From Bacteroidia bacterium (lineage in GTDB: Bacteria; Bacteroidota; Bacteroidia; 2-12-FULL-35-15): a stretch of DNA of 64,000 bases. The notes below the pieces were generated by a model. It saw only the letters and a program-made list of their open reading frames with translations, was not told the origin of the DNA and searched no databases. Below, in pieces: positions 583 to 32,721 of this stretch; position 1 is the first letter of the stretch, and each line of letters begins with the position of its first letter. The DNA is taken from contig JBJMLR010000009.1 in NCBI GenBank assembly GCA_045805205.1, positions 197,658 through 261,657 of the forward strand, written 5' to 3'. A program made the translations under genes and the position numbers.

Positions 583-700
583 ACTAGGAGATTGCTTCGG
601 TCGTTCCTCCCTCGCAATGACGCTGGTAGGGAAAATCATCTGGTCAATAAGAGATTGCTTCGGTCGTTCCTTCCTCAATGGCGCGGGTAGGAGCCATCAC
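583..700. repeat. ~63-bp tandem duplicate (x2), each copy carrying a dispersed element of the gattgcttcg...ctcgcaatgacg type
   Basis: Direct reading: aataagagattgcttcggtcgttcc(t)cc... occurs twice (583-645 and 646-700) between two convergent genes. Confidence 0.7.
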
Positions 701-5194: not shown

Positions 5195-6019
5195 ATGATC
5201 ACTTTTCCAAATGCAAAAATCAATATAGGTCTGAACATCATCGGAAAGCGCGATGATGGATTCCATAATATCGAAAGCGTGATGTACCCGATCGGTTTAT
5301 GTGATGCGCTTGAGATCATCGGGAACAAGGAACCGGGTGCCGAACAGTTTATTTTTACTTCTTCGGGAATTGATATTCCCGGAAACGCGAAAGACAATTT
5401 ATGCCGCAAGGCTTATGACCTGATCTCAAGAGATTATGCGTTGCCGAATGTGCGTGTTCATCTTCATAAACACATTCCGGTTGGTGCGGGACTGGGAGGA
5501 GGATCCGCAGATGCGGCTTTTTTTATCCGGCTGCTGAACGAGAAATTTGAGATCGGCCTGGCATGGGGTGAGATGCATCATTATTCCCGTCAGCTTGGAA
5601 GCGACTGCTCCTTTTTTATTTCGAATAAACCGGCTTTCGCTGAAGAAAAAGGGGATCAGTTCGAATCTGTTTTGCTTGACCTGTCGGGGTATTACATTGT
5701 TTTAGTTTGTCCGCCGATCCATGTGAACACTGCGAAAGCCTACAGCGGTGTTAAGCCTCAAAAGCCGGTTCGTTCGCTTGAAGAAGATATTCAGAAACTT
5801 CCGGCTGCGCAGTGGAAAGATCATATTTACAATGATTTTGAGGATTCTATTTTTTCTCAGTTCCCGGAAATAAAAAAGATCAAAGAAAGCTTGTATGAAA
5901 AAGGGGCACTCTATGCTTCCATGAGCGGCAGCGGATCGTCGGTGTATGGATTGTTTGAACGTCCGGTGTTTTTGGAGACAGACTTTCCCGGGTGCTTTGT
6001 TTATGAGAGCGAGTTGTAA
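5195..6019 (+). CDS. ispE: 4-(cytidine 5'-diphospho)-2-C-methyl-D-erythritol kinase
   Basis: GHMP-kinase signature. KINIGLNIIGKRDDGFHNIESV and PVGAGLGGGSADAA are typical of IspE. Confidence 0.85.
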   Translation: MITFPNAKINIGLNIIGKRDDGFHNIESVMYPIGLCDALEIIGNKEPGAEQFIFTSSGIDIPGNAKDNLCRKAYDLISRDYALPNVRVHLHKHIPVGAGLGGGSADAAFFIRLLNEKFEIGLAWGEMHHYSRQLGSDCSFFISNKPAFAEEKGDQFESVLLDLSGYYIVLVCPPIHVNTAKAYSGVKPQKPVRSLEEDIQKLPAAQWKDHIYNDFEDSIFSQFPEIKKIKESLYEKGALYASMSGSGSSVYGLFERPVFLETDFPGCFVYESEL

Positions 6020-6023
6020 TGGT

Positions 6024-6085
6024 TTAAGTGATTAGGTGGCTAAGTAACCAAGTAACTTAGTGATTAGCGATTAAGTGACTGAATG
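6024..6085. repeat. degenerate 8-bp tandem repeat (GTRAYTRG family)
   Basis: gtttaagtgattaggtggctaagtaaccaagtaacttagtgattagcgattaagtgact lies directly after the ispE stop. Confidence 0.6.
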
Positions 6086-6094
6086 ATATTTCTT

Positions 6095-6523
6095 TTATCC
6101 CTTCCTGAAAAGTTTCGTATACCCTTTAACATAGATCTTCCGTTTCTCTCCGACAAAATTTCCGGTCAGGATCAGCTCCGTGCAAAATGCATGCAGGCCA
6201 TCCTTATCGATGGGCGTAAGATATTTGAACTGGTAGATCGTTACCTTGAATTGGTCTGCTTTCCCTGGAAGGAGAGGAGTGCTCGGAAGATTGGCGAAAC
6301 CTTTTCCGCCGCCATTGCAGCTTGAAATGATCAGCGGTTCGTTTCCGGTATTCTGAAATTTAAATTCGACATCACGATAAGTAGAGGTTGCTATTTTCCC
6401 GGTGCTGTCAAGTGGAATCACAACCAGCCCGATGTCGATGGTGTCCTTTTCAAGCTTCAGAACTCCCTGTGCGGGAATCAGGAATGGAACTAAAAGCAAT
6501 ATGATCGAAATTCTATTTTTCAA
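6095..6523 (-). CDS. DUF1573-like secreted protein
   Basis: Signal peptide. The FKFQNTGNEPLIISSCNGGGKG motif (F.F.N.G..PL.I) is characteristic of DUF1573 domains. Confidence 0.5.
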   Translation of the reverse strand: MKNRISIILLLVPFLIPAQGVLKLEKDTIDIGLVVIPLDSTGKIATSTYRDVEFKFQNTGNEPLIISSCNGGGKGFANLPSTPLLPGKADQFKVTIYQFKYLTPIDKDGLHAFCTELILTGNFVGEKRKIYVKGYTKLFRKG

Positions 6524-6620: not shown

Positions 6621-7686
6621 CTTTCTTCAACAGGTACCAGGCCAGGAAGCCAAAAAGTATGTTGGGGATCCACACGGAAGCAAAAGGTGAAACCAAACCG
6701 CTTGCCGCGAATGTTGTAGTGACCTGCATAAACATGATAAAGGTAAAGCTGATAAAGATACCGAGCCCGATATGCATTCCGATGCCTCCCCGGATCTTCC
6801 GGCTGGCAATGGATGCGCCGATAAGTGTCAGAATGAACGTTGCGAATGGAAATGCGGTCCGCCGGTACTTTTCGATCTCATAGCTTTCGATATTATCGGA
6901 TCCTTTTAACTTTTCAGCCGCGATATAATCGTTAAGCTCATGGTAATCCATTGTGCCGACCGTGTTGTCTTTTCTCCCAAACTCCTCCGGCGTAAAATTG
7001 AATGTCGTATCGATCTTTTTACCTTTCGTGATGAACTCGTCCATATCATGAATATAGCGGATGTAGTAATTGTTGATCGTCCATTGGCTTTTGATCGTAT
7101 CCCATTTGATATTATCTGCAACAAGCTTGTAATATAACCTGCCCTTGCTGAATTTTTCAATGGAGAACTGGTATCCTGTATTTTCGGTTGTTGAATACCT
7201 TCCAAGATAAATATAGTTTCCCGGAGAGATCTGTTTATGAATATTCAGATCATGGTTATGAAATTCGTTCCGCACATACGTGTTCTCAAATTCAATTTGC
7301 TTTTTGGTCGCATGAGGGATCACAAAATGATTCAGATATAGTGACAGTGCGGCAATTACGGTTGCCGAAAGCATGTAGGGGAAAAGAAGACGGGTATAGC
7401 TTATTCCGCTGCTGAGGATCGCAACAATTTCCGTGCGGGTGGCCATCTGCGAAGTAAAAAAGATCACGGCGATGAATGTAAACAGCGGACTGAAAAGATT
7501 AAGGAAGAACGGAATGAAATTGAAGTAATAATCTACGATAATGGCACTGAGCGGAGCTTGTTTTGCAATAAAATCATCGATCTTTTCAGAGATGTCAAAT
7601 ACCACTACGATCAGGATGATCAAAGCCATGGCGAAGAAAAAAGTGCCAAGGAATTTCCGGATAATGTATCTGTCGAGTAGTTTCAA
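6610..7686 (-). CDS. LptF/LptG-family LPS export permease
   Basis: 358 aa. N-terminus LLDRYIIRKFLGTFFFAMALIILIVVVFD is typical of YjgP/YjgQ. There are six TM segments with a periplasmic middle domain. The ORF begins with TTG. Confidence 0.75.
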   Translation of the reverse strand: MKLLDRYIIRKFLGTFFFAMALIILIVVVFDISEKIDDFIAKQAPLSAIIVDYYFNFIPFFLNLFSPLFTFIAVIFFTSQMATRTEIVAILSSGISYTRLLFPYMLSATVIAALSLYLNHFVIPHATKKQIEFENTYVRNEFHNHDLNIHKQISPGNYIYLGRYSTTENTGYQFSIEKFSKGRLYYKLVADNIKWDTIKSQWTINNYYIRYIHDMDEFITKGKKIDTTFNFTPEEFGRKDNTVGTMDYHELNDYIAAEKLKGSDNIESYEIEKYRRTAFPFATFILTLIGASIASRKIRGGIGMHIGLGIFISFTFIMFMQVTTTFAASGLVSPFASVWIPNILFGFLAWYLLKKAQK

Positions 7687-7687
7687 T

Positions 7688-7777
7688 GGGTGATTAGGTG
7701 ACTGGGTGATTAGGTAACTAGGTGATTAGGTGACTGGGTAATTAGGTGACTGGGTAACTAGGTGACTAAGTAACTAC
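7688..7777. repeat. degenerate 8-bp tandem repeat, about 11 units (GGTGAYTRG)
   Basis: ggtgattag gtgactgg gtgattag gtaactag ... read directly. It overlaps the tgt 3' end. Confidence 0.85.
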
Positions 7778-8904
7778 AACCGGCTTCCGAGTTTCGGTAC
7801 CATCTGATCTTTCCATTCTTTAAAAGTTCCGGCGATGATCTGGTTCCGTGCCTCGCCGACCAACCACAAATAAAAAGCCAGATTATGAATACTGGCAATT
7901 TGCGCAGCCAGAAGCTCCTGCGAATGTACAAGGTGCCGCAGGTAAGCCTTGCTGTATGCCTTATCCACGTATGAGGTTCCATCGGGGTCAAGAGCTGAAA
8001 AGTCGTCCCTCCATTTTTCATTTTTCATGTTCATGATGCCATTTTTGGTGAAAATCAATCCATGGCGGGCATTCCGGGTTGGCATCACACAATCGAACAT
8101 ATCGATCCCAAGGGCAATGGACTCCAGGATGTTGACCGGTGTTCCGACTCCCATCAGGTAACGGGGCTTATCAGCCGGAAGAATATTGCAAACAACTTCG
8201 GTCATGGCGTACATATCCTCGGCCGGTTCTCCCACGGAAAGTCCTCCGATGGCGTTGCCTTCCCGGTTCTGAGCTGCGATGAACGCTGCCGAACGTTCCC
8301 GGAGATCTTTATAAACGCTTCCCTGCACGATCGGAAAGAGTGTCTGACGATAGCCATATTTGCCTTCTGTCTCATCAAAACGGGTGCAGCACCGCTTCAG
8401 CCAGCGATGCGTCATTTCCATCGAATTCTTAGCGTATTCGTATTCGCAGGGGTAGGGTGTGCATTCATCAAAAGCCATGATGATATCGGCTCCGATGGTC
8501 CGCTGGATATCCATGACATTTTCAGGTGTAAAGAAATGCTTGCTGCCGTCAATATGAGAAGTAAATTTTGCACCTTCTTCGGTCAGTTTACGCTGTCCCG
8601 AAAGGGAATATACCTGGTACCCGCCGCTATCGGTCAGCAGAGGACGTTCCCAGCCGTTGAATTTATGCAGTCCGCCTGCTTTTTCGATGATACCGAGACC
8701 CGGACGAAGGTATAAATGATAGGTATTCCCGAGTATGATCTGTGCTTTGATATCATCACGCAGCTCATGCTGGTGGACCGCTTTAACGGTCCCGGCTGTC
8801 CCAACAGGCATAAAAATAGGAGTCCGGATGATCCCATGGTCAGTCGTGATCTCTCCTGCACGGGCTTTAGAATTGGGGTCGGTATGGGAAATGCTGAAAT
8901 TCAT
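7774..8904 (-). CDS. tgt: queuine tRNA-ribosyltransferase (tRNA-guanine transglycosylase)
   Basis: 376 aa. ARAGEITTDHGIIRTPIFMPVGT and GLSVGEP are typical of Tgt. Zinc-binding C..C..C...H lies near the C-terminus. Confidence 0.9.
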   Translation of the reverse strand: MNFSISHTDPNSKARAGEITTDHGIIRTPIFMPVGTAGTVKAVHQHELRDDIKAQIILGNTYHLYLRPGLGIIEKAGGLHKFNGWERPLLTDSGGYQVYSLSGQRKLTEEGAKFTSHIDGSKHFFTPENVMDIQRTIGADIIMAFDECTPYPCEYEYAKNSMEMTHRWLKRCCTRFDETEGKYGYRQTLFPIVQGSVYKDLRERSAAFIAAQNREGNAIGGLSVGEPAEDMYAMTEVVCNILPADKPRYLMGVGTPVNILESIALGIDMFDCVMPTRNARHGLIFTKNGIMNMKNEKWRDDFSALDPDGTSYVDKAYSKAYLRHLVHSQELLAAQIASIHNLAFYLWLVGEARNQIIAGTFKEWKDQMVPKLGSRL

Positions 8905-12239: not shown

Positions 12240-13883
12240 CTATCTGAGGATCAGTTTTTTTCTGCTTGCATGATCTCCTGAGCTGCATTCAATAAAATAA
12301 ATGCCTCTTGACTCTCCTTCCAGTTGGATTTCCTCTTTGTTCAGACTCGTTTGTTTTTTCAGGATGCATCTTCCAAGGTTGTCGGTAATCTTGACCGTTT
12401 TCGGACCCGGATCACTCATAGCGATACTGAAAACATCAGAAGCAGGATTCGGTGAAATGACAAATCCGTTTTTTTCATCGTTTGCCGGAACCGATGCCAT
12501 ACTTTCAGAAATTTTGGCTACAAACAGGTTTCCACTTCCGCTTGAATTGTAAAATGTCGTACTTCCAAAAGTAATGAAAGCGCTGGTAAAATGTCCGGTA
12601 GTGAAGATCGCGTTGGTTCCGGTCGATGTCACATCCTCACACCAGTCGGGGTTGCCGCCGCCAACGGATTGCACCCAGGAAAGCGTACCATCACTTTCAT
12701 ATTTTGCGAGAAAGCCGTCCTCCGACCCGGAGCTGCCTCCGTGGTTAAAAAGACCGGTACCCCCGAATGCAACCGGGTTGCTGGTGAAGGCACCGCAGAT
12801 GTAAGGATTGTCAGCGCTGTCGACCGTTAAGCCGATCCCGAGATCATAATCGTTCCCTCCGGCACTTGTTGCCCAAAGTGTATTTCCGGACGGATCCATT
12901 TTGGCAAGGATTATATCGTCCGAAGGAGGACTGACATTCGTAAGATTATAGCTGTCAAACGCAATGGAGCTGCCGCCGAAGCCTCCCGTAAAATAAACAT
13001 TTGCCGAGCCATCACATTTTATCGCACGGCTCCAGTTATTTCCGGCCGATCCGTATTCCTTTGCCCAGAGTGCTGTTCCGGAAGAGTTGTATTTTGCAAG
13101 ATAGATGTGTGCATATGTGTCGGAGGTGGATACGGTGTAGGCGCCGAATGTGCTGCTATTCTTATATCGCCCGGTGATCAGGACATTTCCCGCAACATCG
13201 GTACAGACTCCGTTGGCCTCATGTCCGTTGCTGCTTCCCGAGCTTCGTCCCCAGAGTCCGGCTCCGGACGGATCAACTTTTAACAGGAAGATATTATAGT
13301 CGGGACCGGCTGGCGGGATATTGACGGTATCATAAATGGCGCTTCCGCCGTCGAATGAGCCGGTTATATATACGTTAACGCCATCCGTCGCGATTCCATT
13401 GGTCATGAGATCAAAATTCGAAATAGCTTTTACCCAAACGACATTTCCGCTTCCATCCAGCTTCAGAATAAAACCATTGGTCAGGCCGCTGGCCGGACTC
13501 TTGTGCAGCATAAAAGAACCAAAAGCAAGCGAATCGCTGAAGAAGTACCCTGTCACATAGATATTACCGCTGGCATCAGCAACTACGTCCTGTGCAAGCT
13601 CCTCAAGGTAATTGCCAAATGCCTTCGCCCACATGAAGTTCCCGGAGCCATCGTATTTGGCGACGAAAATATCATATCCGCCGGCTCCTGTTATTGTGGT
13701 TCCGCCGAAATCCATGGTCGGACTAGTGAAGCCACCAGCCAGGACAAGGTTCCCCGAAGGGTCGTGTGCAATGTGCTCATAAAGTGTAGCGCACTGAGCG
13801 GATCTTGCCCAGTTCCATGTTGGCGTTTGTGCAGTAAGGAAATGAGAAATAAAAAGGCACAGCAGGAGTAAATTTTTTTTCAT
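12240..13883 (-). CDS. SBBP-type beta-propeller repeat protein with a T9SS C-terminal sorting domain
   Basis: Signal peptide. Repeated SGN..(V/I)TG.F motifs. C-terminus ISPNPASDVFSIA...IYFIEC... matches the Por/T9SS CTD pattern. Confidence 0.6.
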   Translation of the reverse strand: MKKNLLLLCLFISHFLTAQTPTWNWARSAQCATLYEHIAHDPSGNLVLAGGFTSPTMDFGGTTITGAGGYDIFVAKYDGSGNFMWAKAFGNYLEELAQDVVADASGNIYVTGYFFSDSLAFGSFMLHKSPASGLTNGFILKLDGSGNVVWVKAISNFDLMTNGIATDGVNVYITGSFDGGSAIYDTVNIPPAGPDYNIFLLKVDPSGAGLWGRSSGSSNGHEANGVCTDVAGNVLITGRYKNSSTFGAYTVSTSDTYAHIYLAKYNSSGTALWAKEYGSAGNNWSRAIKCDGSANVYFTGGFGGSSIAFDSYNLTNVSPPSDDIILAKMDPSGNTLWATSAGGNDYDLGIGLTVDSADNPYICGAFTSNPVAFGGTGLFNHGGSSGSEDGFLAKYESDGTLSWVQSVGGGNPDWCEDVTSTGTNAIFTTGHFTSAFITFGSTTFYNSSGSGNLFVAKISESMASVPANDEKNGFVISPNPASDVFSIAMSDPGPKTVKITDNLGRCILKKQTSLNKEEIQLEGESRGIYFIECSSGDHASRKKLILR

Positions 13884-13992
13884 GGCTTCTGTTTTTATTC
13901 AGAAACCTAAATTTTAATGCCATAGTTGACATAGGTCAATAAAACGAGACCCTTACGGAATGGAATTTTATAATGCTTGTCCCGGTACCTTT

Positions 13993-14238
13993 TTATAAAA
14001 ATCTTACCGACATGTGGCAGCCTTGTTTTCTGTATTTGACCAGGAAAGGAAATCTTCTGACCCACATCCATTTTTTAACTTTCGGTGTGGGAGCTTTCTG
14101 GCAGTCTCTCGGCCGGCCGGGCTCAATGATGCTTGTGCTTGTCTGCACTTGCGGTTTGCCTTTGCCTACCTGCGCATGAGAGAATGTAGTGAGAGAAAAA
14201 AAGAGAATGAAGAGGAGGAGAAGTTTTTTTGTTTTCAT
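13993..14238 (-). CDS. small secreted hypothetical protein
   Basis: 81 aa with a plausible signal peptide (MKTKKLLLLFILFFSLTTFSHAQ). No homology support, so it may be spurious. Confidence 0.25.
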   Translation of the reverse strand: MKTKKLLLLFILFFSLTTFSHAQVGKGKPQVQTSTSIIEPGRPRDCQKAPTPKVKKWMWVRRFPFLVKYRKQGCHMSVRFL

Positions 14239-14342
14239 ACCTCTATAACGGATCGCTTCCTGAAAGGTACAACTCTATAAAAAACAAAAGCCTTCCATTA
14301 TCAGGAAGGCCTTTGCCCGGGTAGTTATTATTGATTCATGTA

Positions 14343-18897: not shown

Positions 18898-21714
18898 ATG
18901 CCAAGAGATAATTCCATAAAATCAGTCCTCATCATCGGAAGCGGTCCAATCGTGATCGGACAAGCCTGCGAATTTGACTATTCCGGCTCACAGGCCGCAC
19001 GTTCACTCAGAGAGGAAGGGATCAGGGTAACGCTGATCAACTCCAACCCGGCGACGATCATGACGGATAAAGTAACTGCGGAGAATATTTACCTGCTGCC
19101 GCTGGAAGTGAAGTCCATTGTAAAGATCCTGGAAGAAAACAAAGATATTGATGCGGTGCTGCCGACCATGGGCGGACAGACGGCCCTGAACCTCGCAATG
19201 AAATGCGATGAAATGGGCATCTGGAAGAAATACAATGTGAGAATGATCGGAGTCGATATCGATGCGATCGAGGTGACGGAGGATCGTGATAAATTCCGTG
19301 AGCGAATGGAAAGCATCGGTGTCGGAATGGCACCTTCCAAAATTGCAAAATCATTCCTGGAAGGAAAAGAGATCGCCCAGGACTTCGGTTTTCCATTGGT
19401 GATCCGCCCGTCCTTTACGCTTGGCGGAAGCGGCGGAAGCGTTGTATACCAGAAAGAAGAATTTGATGCAGCATTGAACCGCGGCCTGCACACGTCGCCG
19501 ATCCACGAAGTACTGATCGATAAAGCGGTGCTTGGCTGGAAAGAATTTGAGCTTGAGTTGTTGCGTGATGCGAATGACAACGTTGCGATCATCTGCTCGA
19601 TCGAGAATTTTGATCCGATGGGCGTTCATACCGGCGATAGCATCACGGTTGCTCCGGCAATGACCCTGAGCGATACCACTTACCAGAAGATGCGGACACT
19701 CGCGATCAAAATGATGCGCAGCATCGGAAATTTTGCGGGCGGATGTAATGTTCAGTTTGCGGTAAGCCCTGATGATGCGGAAGACATTATCGCCATCGAG
19801 ATCAATCCGCGTGTATCGCGTTCATCGGCACTGGCGAGTAAAGCAACCGGTTACCCGATCGCTAAGATTGCGTCGAAGCTGGCGATCGGTTATCACCTGG
19901 ATGAGCTGGAAAATCAGATCACCAAATCGACCTCTGCCTATTTTGAGCCGACGCTGGATTATGTCATTGTAAAAATTCCGCGCTGGAACTTTGATAAATT
20001 CAAGGGTGCGAAGCGTGAGCTTGGCTTCCAGATGAAATCGGTTGGCGAGGTAATGGGGATAGGCCGCTGTTTCCAGGAGGCATTACAGAAAGCTTGTCAG
20101 AGCCTTGAGATCAAACGGAATGGCTTGGGTGCAGATGGAAAAGAAGTGAAGAACCAGGATGAATTGCTGAAAAGCCTGGAGCGTCCGAGCTGGAATCGTC
20201 TGTTCCATATTTACGATGCGATCAAATTGGGGATCTCGATCAAAACGATCCAGAAGCTTACACGGATCGATCCGTGGTTTTTGAACCAGATCGAAGAGCT
20301 GATCATTCTTGAAAGCGAAATTTCTAAATACAGATTAGGAGATCTTCCGAAAGACCTGCTCTATGAGGCAAAGCAAAAAGGGTATGCTGACCGCCAGATC
20401 GCACATTTGCTGAATTGCCTCGAAAGTGAAGTATTCAATCGCCGCCGTGATCTGAATATCAATCGCGTTTATAAGCTTGTCGATACCTGTGCAGCGGAAT
20501 TCGAAGCGAAGACACCCTACTATTACAGTACTTTCGAAGATGAGAATGAAAGCATCGCCTCCGACAAGAAGAAGATCGTGGTGTTAGGAAGCGGTCCGAA
20601 CCGCATCGGACAGGGAATTGAATTTGACTACAGCTGTGTGCATGGCGTATTGGCTGCAAAGGAATGCGGCTATGAAACCATTATGATCAATTGCAACCCG
20701 GAAACGGTTTCTACGGATTTCAACGTTGCCGATAAGCTTTATTTCGAACCGGTGTTCTGGGAACATATTTACGATATCATCCTGAACGAAAAGCCGGAAG
20801 GAGTGATCGTTCAGCTGGGCGGACAAACGGCTTTGAAGCTGGCGGAAAAGCTGGAGCGCTATGGCATCAAGATCATCGGAACGGATTTCAAGTCGCTTGA
20901 CCTGGCTGAAGATCGCGGAAGCTTTTCGACTTTGCTGAAAGAAAATAACATTCCGTATCCGGAGTTCGGTGTGATCGAAGATGCGGAGCAGGCGGTGGAG
21001 CTTTCAAGAAAATTAGGATTCCCGCTGCTGGTTCGTCCGAGCTATGTGTTGGGCGGACAAAGCATGAAGATCGTGATCAATGAGCAGGAGCTGGAGCAGC
21101 ACGTTGTAAAACTGTTGCAGGATCACCCGGGCAATAAAGTATTGCTGGATCATTTCCTGGAAGGAGCGATCGAGGCTGAGAGTGATTCGATCTGTGACGG
21201 AAAAGATAATTACATCATCGGGATCATGGAGCACATCGAGCCGGCAGGGATCCACTCCGGAGATTCATACGCTGTTCTTCCTCCATTCGACTTGAGCGAG
21301 AATGTAATGAAGCAGATCGAGCAGCATACAAAAACGATTGCACTTGCTTTGAATACGGTCGGATTGCTGAACATCCAGTTCGCGATCAAAGATGAAGTGG
21401 TATACATCATTGAAGCCAATCCGCGTGCATCGCGTACGGTTCCGTTCATTGCGAAGGCGTATGATGAGCCGTATGTTAACTATGCAACCAAGGTAATGCT
21501 GGGTGCTAAGGTCAAAGACTTCAAATTCAGCCCGACCAAAAAAGGATATGCGATCAAGATCCCGGTATTCTCCTATGAGAAATTCCCGGAGGTGACCAAA
21601 GAGCTGGGGCCTGAAATGAAATCAACCGGTGAAGCGATCTATTTCATTGATGATCTGACGGATGAGTTCTTTCACAATATTTATTCTGAGAGGAATTTGT
21701 ATTTGAGTAAGTAA
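18898..21714 (+). CDS. carB: carbamoyl-phosphate synthase large subunit (short, about 938-aa form)
   Basis: Two ATP-grasp halves (IIGSGPIVIGQACEFDYSGSQA... and VVLGSGPNRIGQGIEFDYSCVH...). The last ~20 codons are duplicated in the downstream tandem array. Confidence 0.9.
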   Translation: MPRDNSIKSVLIIGSGPIVIGQACEFDYSGSQAARSLREEGIRVTLINSNPATIMTDKVTAENIYLLPLEVKSIVKILEENKDIDAVLPTMGGQTALNLAMKCDEMGIWKKYNVRMIGVDIDAIEVTEDRDKFRERMESIGVGMAPSKIAKSFLEGKEIAQDFGFPLVIRPSFTLGGSGGSVVYQKEEFDAALNRGLHTSPIHEVLIDKAVLGWKEFELELLRDANDNVAIICSIENFDPMGVHTGDSITVAPAMTLSDTTYQKMRTLAIKMMRSIGNFAGGCNVQFAVSPDDAEDIIAIEINPRVSRSSALASKATGYPIAKIASKLAIGYHLDELENQITKSTSAYFEPTLDYVIVKIPRWNFDKFKGAKRELGFQMKSVGEVMGIGRCFQEALQKACQSLEIKRNGLGADGKEVKNQDELLKSLERPSWNRLFHIYDAIKLGISIKTIQKLTRIDPWFLNQIEELIILESEISKYRLGDLPKDLLYEAKQKGYADRQIAHLLNCLESEVFNRRRDLNINRVYKLVDTCAAEFEAKTPYYYSTFEDENESIASDKKKIVVLGSGPNRIGQGIEFDYSCVHGVLAAKECGYETIMINCNPETVSTDFNVADKLYFEPVFWEHIYDIILNEKPEGVIVQLGGQTALKLAEKLERYGIKIIGTDFKSLDLAEDRGSFSTLLKENNIPYPEFGVIEDAEQAVELSRKLGFPLLVRPSYVLGGQSMKIVINEQELEQHVVKLLQDHPGNKVLLDHFLEGAIEAESDSICDGKDNYIIGIMEHIEPAGIHSGDSYAVLPPFDLSENVMKQIEQHTKTIALALNTVGLLNIQFAIKDEVVYIIEANPRASRTVPFIAKAYDEPYVNYATKVMLGAKVKDFKFSPTKKGYAIKIPVFSYEKFPEVTKELGPEMKSTGEAIYFIDDLTDEFFHNIYSERNLYLSK

Positions 21715-22000
21715 TTACAGCGCGTCATTGCGAGTGAGCTAGCGAACGAAGCAATCTGTCGTTTGATTTGACGGATAAGTTCTTTCATAATATTTATTCC
21801 CAAAGGAATTTGTGCCAGAGTAAATAAAATGCCCGTCATCCTGAGCGGAGTCGAAGGAGGGCCTTTTAGCGAACGAAGCAATCTCATCGTTTGATCTGAT
21901 GGATAAGTTCTTTCATGACATTTATTCCAAAAGGAATTTGTATCCGGGTAAATAATTACAGCGCGTCATTGCGAGTGAGTTAGCGAACGAAGCAATCTTA
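21648..22000. repeat. ~113-128-bp tandem repeat x3. Each unit is a copy of the carB 3' end (~20 codons plus stop) followed by the dispersed cgtcattgcgag...cgaagcaatc element.
   Basis: Units translate to DLTDEFFHNIYSERNLYLSK*, FDLTDKFFHNIYSQRNLCQSK* and FDLMDKFFHDIYSKRNLYPGK*. The first unit is the real carB terminus. Confidence 0.85.
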
Positions 22001-22262
22001 TTATAGTGATATTATAAAATGGAAAAAGGTCGGAGGGGATTCCTTCTTTGCCAAAGGTTTTTGGCGGATGAAGGGGTCCTATTTCGTGTGCTGTTGTCTC
22101 TTATAGTGTCTGTCACCACTGCCAGTAAAGATTTAGGCTATCCGAGAGGCGGACTTTTATAACAATTGGATTTGCAAGGCCAAGCCAAGTTAACACAAAA
22201 GCATCTTTGTAGTACGAAATCTTGCCTTTTGAGTAGTGCCGTTACTAATAGTTACTCTTTCT

Positions 22263-23633
22263 TCATTTCTTTTCTTTTATCAATTCCGTAACCTCGTTCG
22301 CTATTATTTTAATATTTTCTGGCTTTAAAACATTTTTAATAGAATCAGATATTTCTTCGTGTGGTGATTTTAGTTTAAGAAATGTGTCAATACCTTTAGA
22401 TGGGTTTGTATTTAATTGGTCTCTCAATGAATTAAACAATTCCATATACTCTGCGTCTTTATGTTCTAAACTGTACAATTCTCTGTATCCAGTCATTGCA
22501 GCAGCAATTGATGCTTTATGATGATATTCTTCAGCAAGTTTTTTTGCAATCTTTTGATTTCTATTTAGCATCCAAATTGCAAATATAAGCGCACCCGCAA
22601 TGCTAAATTGATAAATGAGAAGGTGATAATTGAACTCTTTGCCGCACAACAATAGAATTAACTGCGCTACTCCAAATGCAACAATGTCAGCAATTAACCA
22701 ATTTGTCAGGTTTAATGTTTTATTTTCTAGAGTTTGAAATTCTTTAGTGTATTCTTTTGCCCGTTCAGCAAAAGCATTGTGTAATGAGCTATCTGTTAAG
22801 GCAAGTAGCTTTTGTTCGGCATCAGTTGTTAATTTGCCTAATCTGTTAGCTAATGATTCAACAGTTGCTTTTAGTCCAAGCCCTTCCGTTTCTGTTTCTT
22901 CATCGACAACTTTTTCAAACACAGCTTTATAAAAGCTTCTTAATTTTTTTACTTCTTTTTCGTTTTCAGTTAAGTTTTTATTGAAATCATCTTTAATTTT
23001 GATAATTTGAGTTTTTACTGAATCTCTCCCTTCTTCATCTTCTAATAACAGTTTTTGTGCGGCAATAAGCTCAGTATGTTTACTTTCAATACCGGTATTT
23101 AATTTTTGTGAATCTGCAATCAGAGCAGTAGCTTCAGCAACAAGATTATTTAGACTAGCCTTTGTCGATTCTTTCCCGTCGATACCAATTAATGTTTCCG
23201 TTTTAAATTGATCAACATCGATTTTTACATTTAGGATTTGGGCTTTTATTGATTCTCTTCCTTCTTCACTTTCTAATAAAAGCTTGTGAGCAGAAACAAT
23301 CTCTTCCCGTTTGGCTTTAATATCAATAAGTGCTTCATTAATTACTTTTCTTGTTGATGGGTTTTCTTCTGTACCCACTAAGGTTTCGTTTTTGAATTTT
23401 TCAGCCTCTTCTTTTACTTCTTTTAATATTTGCTGGTCTATACCGGCTTTTACAATTACATTCTTAAATATAGTTTGATTAGATAAATGCTCACCCTCGT
23501 CAACTAAATTCTCTTTATAAAATATGCTGAGTTTGTCAATTTGAGCTTGAATAGCTTTAGTTTTTTTCGTTGTTTCGGTTATTAAAGCAAGAAGTTCTTC
23601 TCTTGTCAGTTCAGGACTATTTTTATCTTCCAT
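22263..23633 (-). CDS. repeat-rich coiled-coil protein with a C-proximal two-helix membrane hairpin (island gene A)
   Basis: 456 aa. About 300 aa of heptad-rich sequence with internal ~65-aa repeats (HKLLLESEEGRESIKAQI and QKLLLEDEEGRDSVKTQI). Two TM helices (WLIADIVAFGVAQLILLLCG and LLIYQFSIAGALIFAIWML). Strongly AT-rich DNA. Confidence 0.5.
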   Translation of the reverse strand: MEDKNSPELTREELLALITETTKKTKAIQAQIDKLSIFYKENLVDEGEHLSNQTIFKNVIVKAGIDQQILKEVKEEAEKFKNETLVGTEENPSTRKVINEALIDIKAKREEIVSAHKLLLESEEGRESIKAQILNVKIDVDQFKTETLIGIDGKESTKASLNNLVAEATALIADSQKLNTGIESKHTELIAAQKLLLEDEEGRDSVKTQIIKIKDDFNKNLTENEKEVKKLRSFYKAVFEKVVDEETETEGLGLKATVESLANRLGKLTTDAEQKLLALTDSSLHNAFAERAKEYTKEFQTLENKTLNLTNWLIADIVAFGVAQLILLLCGKEFNYHLLIYQFSIAGALIFAIWMLNRNQKIAKKLAEEYHHKASIAAAMTGYRELYSLEHKDAEYMELFNSLRDQLNTNPSKGIDTFLKLKSPHEEISDSIKNVLKPENIKIIANEVTELIKEKK

Positions 23634-23726
23634 TTTTATTTAGTTAATTTTAATTCGTTGCTTAAATGTTGAAGGGTTTGCGCAATTATCTACAGCGTTT
23701 CGCGGGCTGGCGCTCGGGCGGTCTTG

Positions 23727-24680
23727 TCATTGCGGTAGTATGTCATTTAGCTTGTCCGCAAACTCTTTTGAATCAGATACTTTTATTGGTTTGATAGTTA
23801 CTTCTTTGTTTTCTTTGTTGAAGTCGCTTATATGTTGAGCAACTAAAGGTGTCAAGTCGGTATTATAAACCAACCAAGCTTCTCCATTTTTGTTTTTAAG
23901 ATAATGTGCTAACTGATGAAATGTATTTAACCCAATTTTACTTCTACTCAGATATTTTGCTTCGATAAAGTACCGTTTATTGTTTTTCAAAAATATTAGA
24001 TCAATCCCTTTGTCCTCAAAATCATTGTTTTGAATGTCTAAGTCGGGGCGATTTCTTAATGCAGCCTCAATACTTTTTTCAAACTCAAAACTATATTCAT
24101 GTGTATCTTTGCTTGAAGAAATGTCTTGGATTTCGTTTTGAATTTCTGCATCCTTGTCTTTATCGGATTTGTATTTGAAAAAAGTGCTGATTAGTCCTAA
24201 TATTACAGTCGCTATTGCAAAAATCGTTGATAACAATTCAAGCCACCAAGTTTCTTTAGATTCGGCGTTTTGATTTTTAATTTTGGGGTTGAATTCTTTT
24301 GGCAACTGTAATTTGATTCGTTCAATTTTGTTTATCAGTTCCTTTCTTTTGGTCAATGGAAGAAATTTGTCCTCCATAAAAGATTCTTCGGTCTTTGTAA
24401 GGATGTCGTCTAGTGAAAGCGGAAAGCTTTGTTTTAGTGTAATTTCTTTAGCGTGAACAAGTGTCGGCAATTCATTAAGCGTAAATGTGGAATCTGAATA
24501 AATAAGTTCTTTGACTGATTGCAAAATTTCGCTCTCAGCATTTTTAATTCTTTCGTTCTGCGATTCTTGTAGCCAAGTCGGAACATACCAAACACCTATA
24601 TAAATGGTCGCAAAAAAACCAAGTATGCTAAATACTGTCCCGAAGTTTGTAAACCATTCTTTAAGTGTCTTTGTATTCAT
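23727..24680 (-). CDS. membrane-anchored protein with a C-terminal PD-(D/E)xK (restriction-endonuclease-like) fold motif (island gene B)
   Basis: 317 aa. TM helices at about 14-36 and about 148-170. The C-terminal GIDLIFLKNNKRYFIEAKYLS fits the hD...hExK core of Mrr/NERD-type nuclease domains. Confidence 0.4.
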   Translation of the reverse strand: MNTKTLKEWFTNFGTVFSILGFFATIYIGVWYVPTWLQESQNERIKNAESEILQSVKELIYSDSTFTLNELPTLVHAKEITLKQSFPLSLDDILTKTEESFMEDKFLPLTKRKELINKIERIKLQLPKEFNPKIKNQNAESKETWWLELLSTIFAIATVILGLISTFFKYKSDKDKDAEIQNEIQDISSSKDTHEYSFEFEKSIEAALRNRPDLDIQNNDFEDKGIDLIFLKNNKRYFIEAKYLSRSKIGLNTFHQLAHYLKNKNGEAWLVYNTDLTPLVAQHISDFNKENKEVTIKPIKVSDSKEFADKLNDILPQ

Positions 24681-24857
24681 AATATTCTACGTGTTGAATG
24701 ATCAACTATTGTTGCTGGTAACGTTTCGCGGCTTGGTGTTCGTTCGGGTTTTTAACTAAAATCATTTTTGCGAAGCCGAATTTTAAGATATTCAAATTTG
24801 TCTTGTGAAGCGAGATGCCCGTAAAGCGCAACGACCGCTGTCATAGGCAGGCAAATG

Positions 24858-26045
24858 TTAGAATGGCAAGCCATCATCTTTGTCTTCCGAAATGTCTACC
24901 GGCATCCATGGATATTTTTCAGTGTCAGTGATAAAATTTCTGGAAGAATTTGTAAATGTGCCCCAAAACTCTACTGGAGTTTCTTCATCAAAATCTGTTT
25001 CGAAAACATTCCCGTCTAATTCTAAGTAGAGGCTTTCTCCTTGTTTTTTGAATCTGCAAGTCACAACTTCAATTAATTTCCCTCTAGCCAAATTGTCTTC
25101 CTTGATTAAGGCTATTTCTTTTGATATTTGCAGCAACACCTTTTCTAATTCTGTTTTGATGACAGCGTAGTTTTTTTCGAGAGATTTTCTGCTAAATGTA
25201 AATCTTATTTGTTTTGTCAATACCACGCTTTCTGGCGTTTTAGTATAAGACGTGGGTGTGGCCTCGGTTACAGAAATTGTATGTTTTGATATTTCAGGAT
25301 ATCCAATAAGAATTTCGTCAGTTTTTAGATTAACAGTTTTTATTGAATACCCCAAAAAGCTTTTTTGTCGTTGTAGTATTGGTGACACAAATGATATAAT
25401 TAACTTAATCCATTCTTCTTTTTTGCTTTGTTTAAAAGTCACCTTACATTCCTCGATTCCCAATGTTACTATTTCCTTATACCAATTTTCCTCAGTATTT
25501 GTTGGCACAGTGTCTGGGCAAGTATAAAAGTCTCGCATCATTTTTTCAATTTCTGATAAGGTGTGAATCGAATTTTGCTTAACTAAGTCGATGTCTCCTT
25601 TTTTTATAGGTCTAAAATGAGCTAAGGAATTCCTCACATTACCAATTTCATCGAGTTTGTTTTTCATGATTTCTCTTGAACCCAAGAAATAGTTTTTGAA
25701 AAACTTCCAATATGCGTCTGAAGTAATTATTCTTATAAGCTCCCCACTCGTCAAGTGGAGTAACGGACTATTAATAACATAACCGAGGTAGGCGTAATTT
25801 TTGTCTTGCGAGAGCCGCTTTTTCGCGATAGCGCCAAGAGTCGAAGTTTCTGCATCATCGCTCGTTATTGAAAGATCTTTCCATTTATCTTGAAATTCAC
25901 TTTTCAGAATTATGAAGACGAAAACCCTTAAGGAATTTTCAATTCTGAATAAAATATTAAGCGCTTCAAAGTATTCAATCTTTAACCAATCCCCTGGCAG
26001 GTCATATAAATTCTTTTCAGTGTTTTTAGCTTCTTTCCAATCCAT
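24858..26045 (-). CDS. HEPN-domain protein, Abi_2 (AbiD/AbiF)/Swt1-like (island gene C)
   Basis: 395 aa. The alpha-helical N-terminal ~160 aa end in IGNVRNSLAHFRPI, an R-x4-H HEPN motif of the RN..AH type seen in Abi_2/Swt1 families. The size is similar to AbiD/AbiF. AT-rich. Confidence 0.4.
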   Translation of the reverse strand: MDWKEAKNTEKNLYDLPGDWLKIEYFEALNILFRIENSLRVFVFIILKSEFQDKWKDLSITSDDAETSTLGAIAKKRLSQDKNYAYLGYVINSPLLHLTSGELIRIITSDAYWKFFKNYFLGSREIMKNKLDEIGNVRNSLAHFRPIKKGDIDLVKQNSIHTLSEIEKMMRDFYTCPDTVPTNTEENWYKEIVTLGIEECKVTFKQSKKEEWIKLIISFVSPILQRQKSFLGYSIKTVNLKTDEILIGYPEISKHTISVTEATPTSYTKTPESVVLTKQIRFTFSRKSLEKNYAVIKTELEKVLLQISKEIALIKEDNLARGKLIEVVTCRFKKQGESLYLELDGNVFETDFDEETPVEFWGTFTNSSRNFITDTEKYPWMPVDISEDKDDGLPF

Positions 26046-26340
26046 CTTTCTATTTGTTTAGTTTGCTTGCCTATAAATTTCTTACTAACCGCAACTCACA
26101 CGCAATCCCACTGCATTTCAATAAATTAATACTCGTATAGAAGCGGATATAAAACGGGTAGAAACGTTTCTACACGGCTATAGAATTAAATCAATTCCAA
26201 TAAATTGACAGGAGGGAGTAGCTCGAATCGTATAGCTAAAATATAATAATTTCCGAAATGCGCAATGTTTATGCCAGCGAATAGGTAAAAACACCTATTA
26301 GAAGAGGAGCAAAATATCGATGTGCGCAGCTTATCATCGC

Positions 26341-26395
26341 CATGGTGAGATTGCTTCGTTCGCTACACTCACTCGCAATGACGCGCTGCAATGAA
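26341..26395. repeat. dispersed ~37-bp element (gattgcttcgttcgctacactcactcgcaatgacgcg), an inverted copy of the elements at 21720-21998
   Basis: About 36 of 38 nt identical to the reverse complement of 21962-21998. It explains the spurious LLRSL..AMTRCN ORFs at 21681-21887 and 26342-26584. Confidence 0.8.
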
Positions 26396-26433
26396 TCGCC
26401 TGGAGCTCTTTTTTCTTACTGCGTTTCCCAACC

Positions 26434-26997
26434 TTACTCTTTTTCTTCCGGAGCAAAATCGACTGAAACATCCTTGATCTTTTCATCCGGACCAAAAGCC
26501 AGGATCATCGATCGGATGGGACTGGATTCATTAGCATTTGTTATCGTCAGATACGTGGACAAAGCCAAAGATCCACCGCTCTGATCCCGGCAGGAATAGG
26601 ATTGCGGATATTTGCCGGCAAATTCGGAAAGGGACCAGGAGGGATCCAATACCACCTGCTCGTCCGAAAGGAATTTCACACCATTGTTGTGCAGGATATT
26701 CAGACTGGTCAGATACATCGCCTCACGGGAATCTCCATAGCTTATTTCAGTTTCCTCCGGATCGATGTATTTCATGGAATCCGGGCTCATTTTGAATTTA
26801 ATTGGTTTTGCAAAACCTTCAATGAGCAGCTGATCAAGCGGCAATGCATCAAATGTACAGGTGCCTGCGGCAAGTTTTTCCATTCGTTCTCTTTCCTGCT
26901 GCTTGTTGTTCTCTACCGAAGTCAATCCTTTGTACACAAGAAAGATGACAAGTCCCAGGATAAAAATTATGATGAATGCTTTCTTGAAGAGTTTCAT
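26434..26997 (-). CDS. hypothetical membrane-anchored protein
   Basis: 187 aa. N-terminal TM (FIIIFILGLVIFLVY). No recognised motif. Confidence 0.45.
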   Translation of the reverse strand: MKLFKKAFIIIFILGLVIFLVYKGLTSVENNKQQERERMEKLAAGTCTFDALPLDQLLIEGFAKPIKFKMSPDSMKYIDPEETEISYGDSREAMYLTSLNILHNNGVKFLSDEQVVLDPSWSLSEFAGKYPQSYSCRDQSGGSLALSTYLTITNANESSPIRSMILAFGPDEKIKDVSVDFAPEEKE

Positions 26998-27202: not shown

Positions 27203-27694
27203 CTAGCTCTTCGTCAGCATTACATCCAGACTGTCGAGCGTCATTGTAAATCCTTCTTTAAAGCCCATTTCAATCATTTTTTCCATGCGTTCGAGACTAT
27301 CATTGTAAATGGAGATGTGCACTTTTGTTTTCCCGTTTTGTTCGCTGAAAGTCAGGTTCCAGTCAGAACCCGGTAAATGAAGATTTTCATCTTTGTCGGC
27401 GAAAACGCTCAGGAATTTGAAATTGCTCTTCGGGGTAATGGATGTGTATTTCTGGACCTGCCAGCCTTCGTTGCCTTCCGGACTTACCATTGCATAGAAT
27501 CGCCGGTCGCCCACCTCGAAGTTCATGTGCTTTGTTTTTGAGAGATAGGGTTTTGGTGCCCACCATTGATCAAGAATTTCAGGTTTGGTGAAAGCATCCC
27601 ATACCAGCGGGAGCTCCGCATTAAATTCGCGGTTAATGGATACCGTTTTTGTTGCTTTGTCGACAGTGAAGTCAAAGAGTGATGTGTTTTTCAT
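27203..27694 (-). CDS. SRPBCC-superfamily protein (AHSA1 / activator of Hsp90 ATPase-like)
   Basis: 163 aa. The [22 protein letters not shown] pattern is typical of the AHSA1 (PF08327) domain. Confidence 0.75.
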
Positions 27695-27898: not shown

Positions 27899-28396
27899 TT
27901 ACCGTTTCGCCAGCATTGTATCCAGGTTTTCCATCGCCATTGTAAGACCTTCCTTGAAGCCCATTTTGAGTGTAGCTTCCAGCTGAGCGAGGTCAGGATA
28001 GTTGATGATGCCTTCCACCAAGGTATTCTGGCCCATTTCTTTGAAATTCATGATCCATTTAGACTGCGGCATTTCAGGGTTGATCTTTCCATTGGAATCG
28101 CAGAATGCGTCATTGGCTGTGAATTTATTCATCGGTTCGATCTTTTCGTAGTTGGTGACCGACCAATGTTCTTCGCCATTGGGTCCTACTGCGGCGTACA
28201 GCCATTTGCCGCCTTCACGGAAATCCTGGCTCTTTGTTTTTGCTTTCCATGGTTTCGGCATCCACCATTGATCAAGGATCTTATGATCAGTATATGCTTC
28301 CCAGACCGTTGCGCGGTCCGCTGCAAATTCCCGTTGAATGGTGATCACGTTGTGTGTTTTGTCGACATTGAAGTCGAAGAATAATGTTTTGCTCAT
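27899..28396 (-). CDS. SRPBCC-superfamily protein (AHSA1-like), paralog
   Basis: 165 aa. ATVWEAYTDHKILDQWWMPKPW. Confidence 0.75.
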   Translation of the reverse strand: MSKTLFFDFNVDKTHNVITIQREFAADRATVWEAYTDHKILDQWWMPKPWKAKTKSQDFREGGKWLYAAVGPNGEEHWSVTNYEKIEPMNKFTANDAFCDSNGKINPEMPQSKWIMNFKEMGQNTLVEGIINYPDLAQLEATLKMGFKEGLTMAMENLDTMLAKR

Positions 28397-30917: not shown

Positions 30918-31778
30918 ATGAACTTATTTAGTAAAGAAAACCCTTTTGTTGAGAGAGCAAAATCTCCTCTATATGGGACTTTTATCGTTTCATGGTTAAT
31001 ATGGAATTGGAGAATTGTTCTTACGGTCTTATTCCTTTCCAAGTCCGACTTTCATGGGTTCACTTTAGTTGAGTACATCGCCAATCATTACTTGCATTTC
31101 TGCAATATTTTGTTCGTCCCGTTGTTATTTACTGCCCTTTATTTATTTGCACTGCCTCACATTGATTACTACATATTGAGTTATACTGAAGAAAGAAAAA
31201 GAAGGAGAATAGACAAAAAAATGAAAATCCTAGGTAGTCACTCCGTGAGCGGTAGAGATTACAATGACTTGCTTTTTAAATATGATGCAGAAAGAAAAAA
31301 GATAATTACTATTCAACAGGAATTAACAACCGCCAATACAGAATTAGTTGGTACAAAAAACAAGCTTGAGGGACAAATCAACTCATATAATCAGCTAAAA
31401 ACGATTATAGATACTCACGAAGCGTCGTTAACTAGGCTTAGAAACCGACATCAATCGTCAGGTTTTTTTAATGGCAGATGGAAGAGGGAAGCAAAGTCGG
31501 GAACTCAGGTGTCAGAGCAAGAAGTTAGCATCCAAGCAAATGATTATTACCGTGTCAAGAATCGCGAAAACAAACAAACTCATATACTGGAATTAGTTAA
31601 TTTTGATCCTGATCGAGCTGATTTGGAATTTGCAAAGGTGTCAGTTGATAACACAGAAATTACTATATGCAAATTAAAAATTGTTGGCGACAACGTGGTA
31701 GAAGGAACCGAAGGAAAAGAAGTCGTGACTTATACGCGAAATAAGTATCAACAACAAGATCAACATACTAAAGTATAG
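30918..31778 (+). CDS. hypothetical membrane protein with a coiled-coil segment (AT-rich islet)
   Basis: 286 aa. Two N-terminal TM helices, then a coiled-coil (ITIQQELTTANTELVGTKNKLEGQINSYNQLKTIID). AT-rich DNA flanked by GTGATAATTA-type repeats. Confidence 0.45.
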   Translation: MNLFSKENPFVERAKSPLYGTFIVSWLIWNWRIVLTVLFLSKSDFHGFTLVEYIANHYLHFCNILFVPLLFTALYLFALPHIDYYILSYTEERKRRRIDKKMKILGSHSVSGRDYNDLLFKYDAERKKIITIQQELTTANTELVGTKNKLEGQINSYNQLKTIIDTHEASLTRLRNRHQSSGFFNGRWKREAKSGTQVSEQEVSIQANDYYRVKNRENKQTHILELVNFDPDRADLEFAKVSVDNTEITICKLKIVGDNVVEGTEGKEVVTYTRNKYQQQDQHTKV

Positions 31779-32648: not shown

Positions 32649-32721
32649 GTTTTCAATAGGCCGCCCTTCGACTCCGCTCAGGGTGACGCATCACCCGGCT
32701 GCATAGTCACCGGTCAACCTG

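Follow-up and report, generated by a model that had tools for sequence, protein, structure and literature searches.

Mrr-type restriction nucleases carry a soluble N-terminal winged-helix DNA-binding domain. AbiD and AbiF form type III toxin–antitoxin pairs with a conserved upstream non-coding RNA (PMC13064643), and the bacterial Swt1-like HEPN domains that have been described are fused to AAA+ ATPases, to helicase/restriction endonuclease (REase) modules or to transmembrane (TM) helices (PMC3710099). Single-gene HEPN integron cassettes give phage resistance, and Taranis and Esos are HEPN-containing cassettes of the Vibrio cholerae superintegron (bioRxiv 10.1101/2024.07.02.601686). Here we describe an AT-rich block of three genes, “A,” “B,” and “C,” which lies between carB and a gene for a 187-aa protein in a Bacteroidia bacterium (assembly GCA_045805205.1, contig JBJMLR010000009.1); “the window” is the whole stretch of DNA that was analysed, 64,000 nucleotides at positions 197,658 to 261,657 of that contig. 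We read the locus as what is probably a small hotspot between convergent host genes, in which three unrelated single-gene defence-like units have been stacked.

A foreign block of three separate genes

The locus and its two host borders are made up as follows.

18898..21714, plus strand: carB, carbamoyl-phosphate synthase large subunit, 938 aa (from the open reading frame, ORF, and its translation); host gene whose 3' end borders the locus
22002..26345, no strand: AT-rich foreign block of 4.3 kb with three genes (from the GC profile and z-scores of gene GC and of GC at third codon positions, GC3)
24858..26045, minus strand: gene A, 395 aa, Swt1/Abi2-clade HEPN protein (from ORF, profiles, alignment and model)
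23727..24680, minus strand: gene B, 317 aa, two TM segments and an Mrr-like C-terminus (from ORF, alignment and hydrophobicity)
22263..23633, minus strand: gene C, 456 aa, coiled coil and TM hairpin (from ORF, alignment and model)
26434..26997, minus strand: host gene for the 187-aa protein, normal in GC and with a hydrophobic segment at its N-terminus, on the far side of the insertion site

The carB gene, with a GC of 0.482 that is typical for window genes, and the 187-aa gene are convergent, and the three co-oriented minus-strand genes lie between them, with gaps of only 177 and 93 bp from one to the next. In its composition the block is foreign. Sliding-window GC is 0.31–0.38 across about 22000–26250 versus 0.42–0.51 in the flanks, and the GC/GC3 of the single genes is 0.346/0.336 for A, 0.332/0.311 for B and 0.319/0.217 for C, against 0.459 ± 0.019 and 0.528 ± 0.042 for the 46 other genes of the window (z = −4.6 to −7.5, and −6 to −7 for GC by itself). 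The three genes also differ in GC3 among themselves. The initial annotation, which had placed three minus-strand ORFs here in DNA that is AT-rich relative to its flanks and had seen no integrase, is borne out in each of these respects: all three ORFs are present at those positions, the windowed profile and the per-gene z-scores agree, and none of the three resembles a recombinase, a Pfam-level profile search finding no recombinase domain in them. Scans for sigma-70 promoters and terminators gave matches no commoner than in shuffled sequence, the scan being ill-suited to Bacteroidota, and no known (Rfam) or structured RNA was found in the 261-nt region downstream of C.

Whether these genes belong together was addressed with 105 related loci (designated by L numbers), comprising five genomic loci for B, 80 metagenomic and two viral loci for A, and contigs encoding homologues of A, B and C. 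Profile hidden Markov models of the three proteins, run on the six-frame ORFs of all these loci, found A in 85, B in 7 and C in 13, and two of the three genes in none (0/105); only the window combines them, as an earlier tblastn search had likewise indicated. Clustering of the ORFs within 4 kb of A over its 85 loci gave no recurrent neighbour, the largest neighbour family being thyX (ThyX), present in 5/85 loci in one syntenic clade. Homology detected by blastn is confined to 24839–26084 for A, 23726–24722 for B and 22275–23665 for C, that is, to each ORF and at most about 40 bp upstream of it. Solo AT-rich islets are found elsewhere, with 31% GC versus flanks of about 50% (L007), 30% versus 41–46% (L006) and 33% versus 45% (L001). 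On the strength of the missing co-occurrence, the ORF-sized homology and these solo islets, we hold with high confidence that A, B and C are independent units, autonomous both functionally and evolutionarily. As each gene stands alone in other genomes, the block is an island of separate candidate genes and not a new three-gene system, and its members merit testing singly rather than as a trio.

The initial annotation had instead proposed an undescribed three-gene module. A single anti-phage or abortive-infection system in which A, B and C cooperate, either lineage-specific or newly assembled, would account for the shared orientation, for the 177- and 93-bp spacers, for a seemingly complementary set of domains (RNase, membrane nuclease, membrane coiled coil) and for a similar GC-rich motif in both internal junctions.

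23696..23721, minus strand: GC-rich 26-nt motif with CCGCGAAACG, at the B–C junction
24722..24747, minus strand: second copy of the GC-rich 26-nt motif, at the A–B junction just outside the conserved B unit

The two copies are 77% identical, share CCGCGAAACG and both stand just outside the conserved gene units; the motif has only these two copies in the window, and the related loci gave a single chance match. Such cooperation is, however, largely refuted by the co-occurrence test, which found no pair in the 105 loci and no conserved neighbour for A. Each gene also occurs alone with its own upstream region of about 40 bp, GC3 differs from gene to gene, and PADLOC returns no system match, which makes a cooperating trio very improbable. 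The accompanying observation that the genes match no named system did hold, the PADLOC, Pfam and NCBIfam searches being in agreement on it.

Predicted proteins and their neighbourhoods

A is a Swt1/Abi2-clade HEPN protein. Its N-terminal HEPN domain (about aa 23–175) contains the motif R138-x4-H143 (R138-N-S-L-A-H143), of which R138, N139, A142 and H143 are invariant in 48 sequences. Against the Pfam profile HEPN_Swt1 (PF18731) A itself scores 23.5 bits (E 7.1e-5), just below the cut-off of 27.5, and the profile is matched by 48/48 sampled homologues at E ≤ 0.01, the best at 9.3e-8; many homologues carry precomputed PF18731 annotation, and several database entries are named Swt1 family HEPN. 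The AlphaFold model (predicted local distance difference test, pLDDT, 85; predicted template modelling score, pTM, 0.85) has an all-alpha HEPN fold that matches the HEPN domain of yeast Swt1. The C-terminal alpha/beta domain (about aa 180–345) has residues conserved within the family, and a Foldseek search with it against the PDB returned nothing at E ≤ 0.001. No match to the Abi_2 Pfam profile was obtained for A at E ≤ 1, and this family is absent from the top families of the 48 homologues. PADLOC matched A to the PDC-M34B model only (E 2.6e-10 over aa 30–156, the HEPN domain, of a model with 192 positions), NCBIfam gave a domain-level match to DS11 (23 bits versus a cut-off of 260), and PDB sequence searches with the family profiles gave compositional matches only.

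An upstream non-coding RNA of the AbiF kind was considered for A and rejected. Homology ends about 40 bp from the ATG, with no family-wide conserved sequence upstream; Rfam has no match there and the upstream fold is not stable (z −0.1). In an all-against-all comparison of 75 upstream regions, conservation was found within one syntenic clade only and never involved the A of the window. The protein would be a soluble Swt1/Abi2-clade HEPN ribonuclease in which the R-x4-H dyad may form a composite site in a dimer, and whose activity is probably restrained or switched on by its own C-terminal domain. As an abortive-infection effector that works as a single protein, it would respond to infection by a phage by cleaving RNA and stopping growth.

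B has two hydrophobic segments, 13–33 (TM1) and 149–167 (TM2), with a conserved region of about 110 aa between them, and a C-terminal stretch of about 120 aa in which the pattern D227-x12-E240-x-K242 lies within FE...GxD...ExK...NT. Across the family K242 never varies, and conservation is at least 90% at both D227 and E240. Mrr_cat (PF04471) is matched by 10/35 homologues, with a best E of 1.3e-6, and Hjc by one; some homologues are annotated “restriction endonuclease.” PADLOC found no match for B, its models of Shedu and other nucleases included, and neither the family profile nor the C-terminal domain had a PDB sequence match. These residues and segments support B as a membrane-anchored, PD-(D/E)xK-type protein, as judged from its sequence. 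We picture it as a two-pass membrane protein with a probably extracytoplasmic domain between the TM segments, possibly a sensor, and a cytoplasmic Mrr-type PD-(D/E)xK DNase that, tethered to the membrane, would cut invading or cellular DNA.

C begins with a variable, repeat-rich coiled coil with repeats of about 77 aa. Its last ~200 aa are highly conserved and consist of LTDSSLHNAF, a TM hairpin formed by the hydrophobic segments 313–331 and 338–356, and then NRNQKIAKKLAEEYHHKA..AMTGYR..NPSK; the predicted model is all-helical, with a confident hairpin. The family is rare and uncharacterised: an exhaustive HMMER search with the C-terminal module against 1.84 billion representatives gave 74 proteins only, in nearly all of which, short fragments excepted, the module lies in the C-terminal part, and no consistent Pfam match, to SLATT or otherwise, was found in 37 + 37 members. 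C would be a membrane-anchored coiled-coil protein, with the hairpin and the C-terminal module as its functional core, and may be a membrane-perturbing effector; of our proposals for the three proteins, this is the weakest.

The descriptions in the initial annotation thus survive well. The R-x4-H HEPN assignment of A agrees with the invariant motif, the homologue profiles and the model fold, and the repeat-rich coiled coil with a TM hairpin in C agrees with the model and the hydrophobic segments. For B, the two membrane anchors and the PD-(D/E)xK motif stand, the latter through its conserved residues, but the nuclease fold is a prediction from sequence.

Relatives of each gene are found in defence islands or mobile elements elsewhere, in line with the defence-island context that had been suggested for them. 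B adjoins Lamassu LmuA/LmuB in L002 and QatC in L003. In L100 (7054–8957; compare L101) a B homologue of 61% identity overlaps, at an ATGA, an upstream gene for 315 aa, to which it is translationally coupled, beside an IS3-family transposase; this 315-aa partner has an REase-like D...GEAKY motif of its own and is absent from all other B loci. In L016 the vicinity of C includes PD-T7-3 together with HEPN_RiboL-PSP and HNH proteins, and L009 and L104 each have AbiEii near C. A BrxL match was found somewhere among the 72 neighbouring ORFs of B and C, its locus not being assigned, and the neighbours of A include matches to AbiLi, SspH and IetA. Strong defence matches amount to about 5/72 ORFs for the neighbours of B and C, about 4/142 for those of A, and 0/46 for the control genes of the window, which gave generic PADLOC matches only; with counts this low, no firm statistic for enrichment is possible. 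In the window itself, PADLOC found no known defence system adjoining the block.

What the data show is the foreign composition of the block, the domain identities of A and the motif of B, the independence of the three genes with their ORF-sized homology, and the company that they keep elsewhere with integron cassettes, integrative elements and known defence genes; how the proteins are activated, how they lie in the membrane and whether they act against phages we infer. An anti-phage role has an even chance or slightly better for A and for B, each taken separately, and a lower one for C. Should all three prove to defend against phages, they would add three uncharacterised candidates that act as single proteins: a HEPN RNase of the Swt1 type whose C-terminal domain is new, a membrane protein with two passes and an Mrr-like nuclease domain, and a rare family that combines a coiled coil with a TM hairpin.

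The opposite view, that A, B and C are selfish or decaying foreign cargo (addiction-like toxins, or leftovers of degraded elements) and have no part in defence, draws on the strongly foreign composition without amelioration, on the lack of a known defence system next to them in the window, on the absence of a recognisable function in C and on the loss of catalytic residues in some members of the B family. It is at odds with the state of the genes, for none of the three ORFs is broken or shortened by comparison with its family, and the catalytic residues of A and B are conserved. Moreover, the proteins are 70–88% identical in amino acid sequence to proteins in records labelled Margulisbacteria, Ignavibacteria and Flavobacterium, and conservation at this level across phyla implies selection; relatives also stand beside known defence genes. 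We therefore regard mere cargo as unlikely.

Several points do weigh against our reading of the block as stacked, separate defence-like units. The anti-phage role of all three genes rests on guilt by association, and the enrichment in defence neighbours is that of a small sample and not statistically secure. C is without informative homology or fold match in Pfam and PDB profile searches. The B of the window has no Mrr_cat match itself, only 10/35 of its homologues have one, the nuclease fold is sequence-based, and a few family members lack D227 or E240. In a deltaproteobacteria-like clade whose members are about 40% identical to A, the A gene is syntenic with thyX and the flanking DNA is conserved, so the A family is not always mobile (the loci of this thyX clade are L056, L069, L074, L078, L083, L091 and L094). 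Finally, in this one genome A, B and C may yet be transcribed together or cooperate in function.

Borders of the block and vehicles of its relatives

The carB side of the block carries an array of carB tail copies and elements resembling repetitive extragenic palindromic (REP) sequences, and a further element of this kind, A3, lies on the far side.

21646..21758, plus strand: unit U1, the final 69 nt of carB itself (the native tail) and REP-like element A1 (GCGTCATTGCGAGTGAG + TAGCGAACGAAGCAATCT)
21759..21886, plus strand: unit U2, a decayed in-frame carB tail copy (SFDLTDKFFHNIYSQRNLCQSK followed by a stop), a second-type REP-like element (CGTCATCCTGAGCGGAGTCGAAGGA) and TAGCGAACGAAGCAATCT
21887..22001, plus strand: unit U3, a second decayed carB tail copy and REP-like element A2; left border of the AT-rich DNA
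21957..22001, plus strand: REP-like element A2
26346..26392, minus strand: REP-like element A3, inverted relative to A1 and A2; right border of the AT-rich DNA

The 69-nt carB tail is present in three copies, at 21646 (native), 21759 and 21887, with identities of 77–87%; the two extra tails are in frame, have a stop codon and directly follow carB. They diverge by 17–19% from the native tail and by 14% from each other, and the REP modules between them are identical. The copies show no third-codon-position bias, which was tested for an origin from foreign functional carB alleles, TRF does not report the diverged array, and there is no further tail copy beyond the block or elsewhere in the window. 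Each tail is followed by a REP-like element of 44–59 nt made of two modules, GCGTCATTGCGAGTGAG or its variant CGTCATCCTGAGCGGAGTCGAAGGA and then TAGCGAACGAAGCAATCT. The elements are GC-rich, as is the host, and a literature search on their sequence found nothing.

A3 lies just downstream of the 187-aa gene and in the same orientation. Because A3 follows this gene and A2 follows the carB tails, the AT-rich DNA at 22002–26345 sits exactly between the REP-like elements that trail two convergent host genes. The space between carB and the 187-aa gene would normally hold only such elements, and here 4.3 kb of horizontally acquired AT-rich DNA appears to have accumulated in it. The elements themselves are not specific to the island, since the same modules separate the carB tails and related copies occur elsewhere in the window, at 589–669 (minus strand) and 32664–32688 (minus strand). 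Inverted elements had been seen as bracketing the cassette, and they are indeed present at 21957–22001 and 26346–26392; as cassette termini they fail, for they are dispersed host REP-like elements and not island ends. Taken together, these sequences form a modular family, GCGTCATTGCGAG.. or CGTCATCCTGAGCGGAGTCGAAGG.. plus ..GAACGAAGCAATCT, with sites at 589–669 (minus), 21715–22001 (plus), 26346–26392 (minus) and 32664–32688 (minus), and the copies that were closely examined, those after carB and the 187-aa gene, lie a few to about 40 nt past the stop codon, in the orientation of the gene that they follow.

The tandem array of carB 3' ends that had been noted is therefore real, with its three 69-nt copies, but its interpretation as a signature of serial site-specific integration does not follow, all tails being on the carB side only and so not flanking the insert as attachment (att) sites would. 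Serial integration at the carB 3' end, with an integrase acting in trans, the tails as att leftovers and the block as the last arrival, stays among the possibilities: it would explain three in-frame tails that are each followed by a REP-like element, and it has counterparts among the relatives of A. L065 and L069 have A homologues in islands bounded by repeats resembling tRNA 3' ends, which are exact direct repeats of 44–45 nt (8444–8487/14364–14407 in L065, 947–991/5302–5346 in L069) bracketing segments of 4–6 kb, an arrangement that suggests classical tRNA-targeting islands. In L007, an unrelated Bacteroidetes metagenome-assembled genome (JAOQAE010000006.1, 7673–9990), a 1.9-kb AT-rich islet holds an A homologue together with a 71-aa XRE-like ORF and an 86-aa ORF, and is flanked by a direct repeat of 190–220 nt, 95–97% identical, that is made up of REP-like sequence and the final 128 nt of the ABC-F gene upstream. 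In this it resembles the carB-tail units, being the same kind of “gene tail + REP” duplication. At carB, on the other hand, the far side of the block has no tail and is bordered by an inverted REP-like element, only 44–59 nt of REP sequence separate the tails, and the block has no integrase; tails that differ by 14–19% without codon bias next to identical REP modules are explained equally well by old local duplication. Serial integration is for these reasons a less likely account, with perhaps a modest chance of being right. The two extra “carB tail + REP” copies we take for local duplications of the insertion site that are old and whose origin is uncertain, the candidates being old local duplication, integration relics or REP-associated capture.

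As for the last of these, ORF-sized AT-rich units such as A might insert beside REP-like elements after host genes and duplicate “gene tail + REP” as they do so. This is a long shot; if true, it would be an integrase-less, REP-associated capture of single-gene defence cassettes in Bacteroidota, distinct from integrons, and the GC-rich CCGCGAAACG junction motif could be its footprint.

Some relatives of A do travel in integron-type arrays. In L037 the A homologue is one cassette among 14–15 repeats of about 202–210 nt, GCCTAAC...GTTAGGC, with the R''/R' boxes of attC sites, and in L038 it lies between GCCCAAC...GTTGGGC repeats that make sites of about 130 nt. L037 (1–16491 of metagenome contig Ga0180433_10005813) has its repeats spaced 680–1930 nt apart and the A-family gene at 6670–7848; by eye, its other cassettes include a SIR2-like gene at 5353–6414 and a HEPN-like gene at 13186–14328 with the motif RNSIVH, and there is no integrase on this 16.5-kb piece. 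Given these attC-flanked relatives, the block might be the remnant of an integron-type cassette array (a cluster of attC sites lacking integron integrase, CALIN) with decayed attC sites and the genes as former cassettes, and its ORF-sized, co-oriented, head-to-tail units with a 26-nt motif common to both junctions would suit this. A scan for attC sites over 21900–26450, however, found its sole RYYYAAC...GTTRRRY pair inside the coding region of gene C and none in any junction; it was a heuristic scan for the R''/R' consensus and not the IntegronFinder model, and it does recover the L037 sites. The junction motif, moreover, occurs only twice, with one chance match in the related loci, and no integron integrase was seen. 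A decayed cassette array is accordingly highly unlikely.

Other vehicles were met with C, which in L102 belongs to an element with a tyrosine integrase, an excisionase and DUF6119, and in L009 lies near RteC, HTH_17 and DUF6119 genes. On plasmids, tblastn found no full-length counterpart for any of the three proteins, the only match of A being one of its HEPN domain, on an Acidisarcina plasmid; phage records, searched by tblastn with A and C only, yielded nothing. In viral contigs A has two relatives, with 41% and 27% identity, and B and C have none. In essence, the locus shows solo defence-like genes of Bacteroidota piling up between convergent host genes near REP-like repeats; with the same HEPN family travelling elsewhere as integron cassettes, nothing in this will be conceptually surprising to specialists.

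Two further features of the window were recorded. A fourth AT-rich solo gene, at 30918–31778 (plus strand; 286 aa, GC 0.355, z −5.4), encodes two N-terminal hydrophobic segments and a coiled-coil-like middle, and matches phrog_13369, a phage family (E 9e-11); Pfam and PADLOC gave no match. It lies 4 kb away from the trio and was probably likewise acquired horizontally as a single gene. At 27203–27694 and 27899–28396 (minus strand) lie tandem paralogues of 163 and 165 aa with a 105-aa gene downstream, which by eye alone look SRPBCC/Aha1-like and ArsR-like; direct repeats of 76 nt and 52 nt accompany the pair, with a 25-nt inverted repeat in its spacer, and it looks like an ordinary local duplication.

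Comparison with known systems

The described families near A include the Abi2 group and the bacterial Swt1-like HEPN proteins. From AbiD, AbiD1 and AbiF of the Abi2 group it differs in lacking, in a sequence-level test, a family-wide upstream sequence, an Rfam match and a stable upstream fold, in having no Abi_2 Pfam match and in its extra C-terminal alpha/beta domain of about 170 residues. With the bacterial Swt1-like HEPN proteins it shares the fold of the yeast Swt1 HEPN domain, and 48/48 of its homologues match their profile PF18731, which A itself approaches just below the cut-off; the 395-aa architecture, with a C-terminal domain that lacks a solved relative, is not described in the Swt1-like set of PMC3710099. 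The HEPN domain of A also matches the component B model of the PADLOC candidate PDC-M34, at domain level only: B, C and the adjacent genes gave no match to the PDC-M34A partner, and a literature search found no paper on PDC-M34.

B shares the D227/E240/K242 pattern, with its D-x12-E-x-K spacing, with the Mrr-type (Mrr_cat, PF04471) type IV restriction nucleases, but in place of their soluble N-terminal part it has two TM helices around the conserved domain of about 110 aa. C presumably resembles the two-TM membrane effectors of defence systems, for example those of the SLATT type. Like these, it combines a TM hairpin with a conserved helical segment behind it, C-terminal to a variable region, and occurs in defence and mobile contexts; unlike these, it has no Pfam SLATT match, and its N-terminal region is always a coiled coil and not a nucleotide-sensor domain.

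Phage resistance from integron cassettes is reportedly also the subject of a further bioRxiv preprint (10.1101/2024.07.02.601719). Compared with integron defence cassettes such as Taranis and Esos, the block of the window has no detectable attC sites or integrase, and the likeness drawn here is one of kind: A is likewise a small, autonomous, ORF-sized unit, and its homologues in L037 and L038 are themselves flanked by attC sites.

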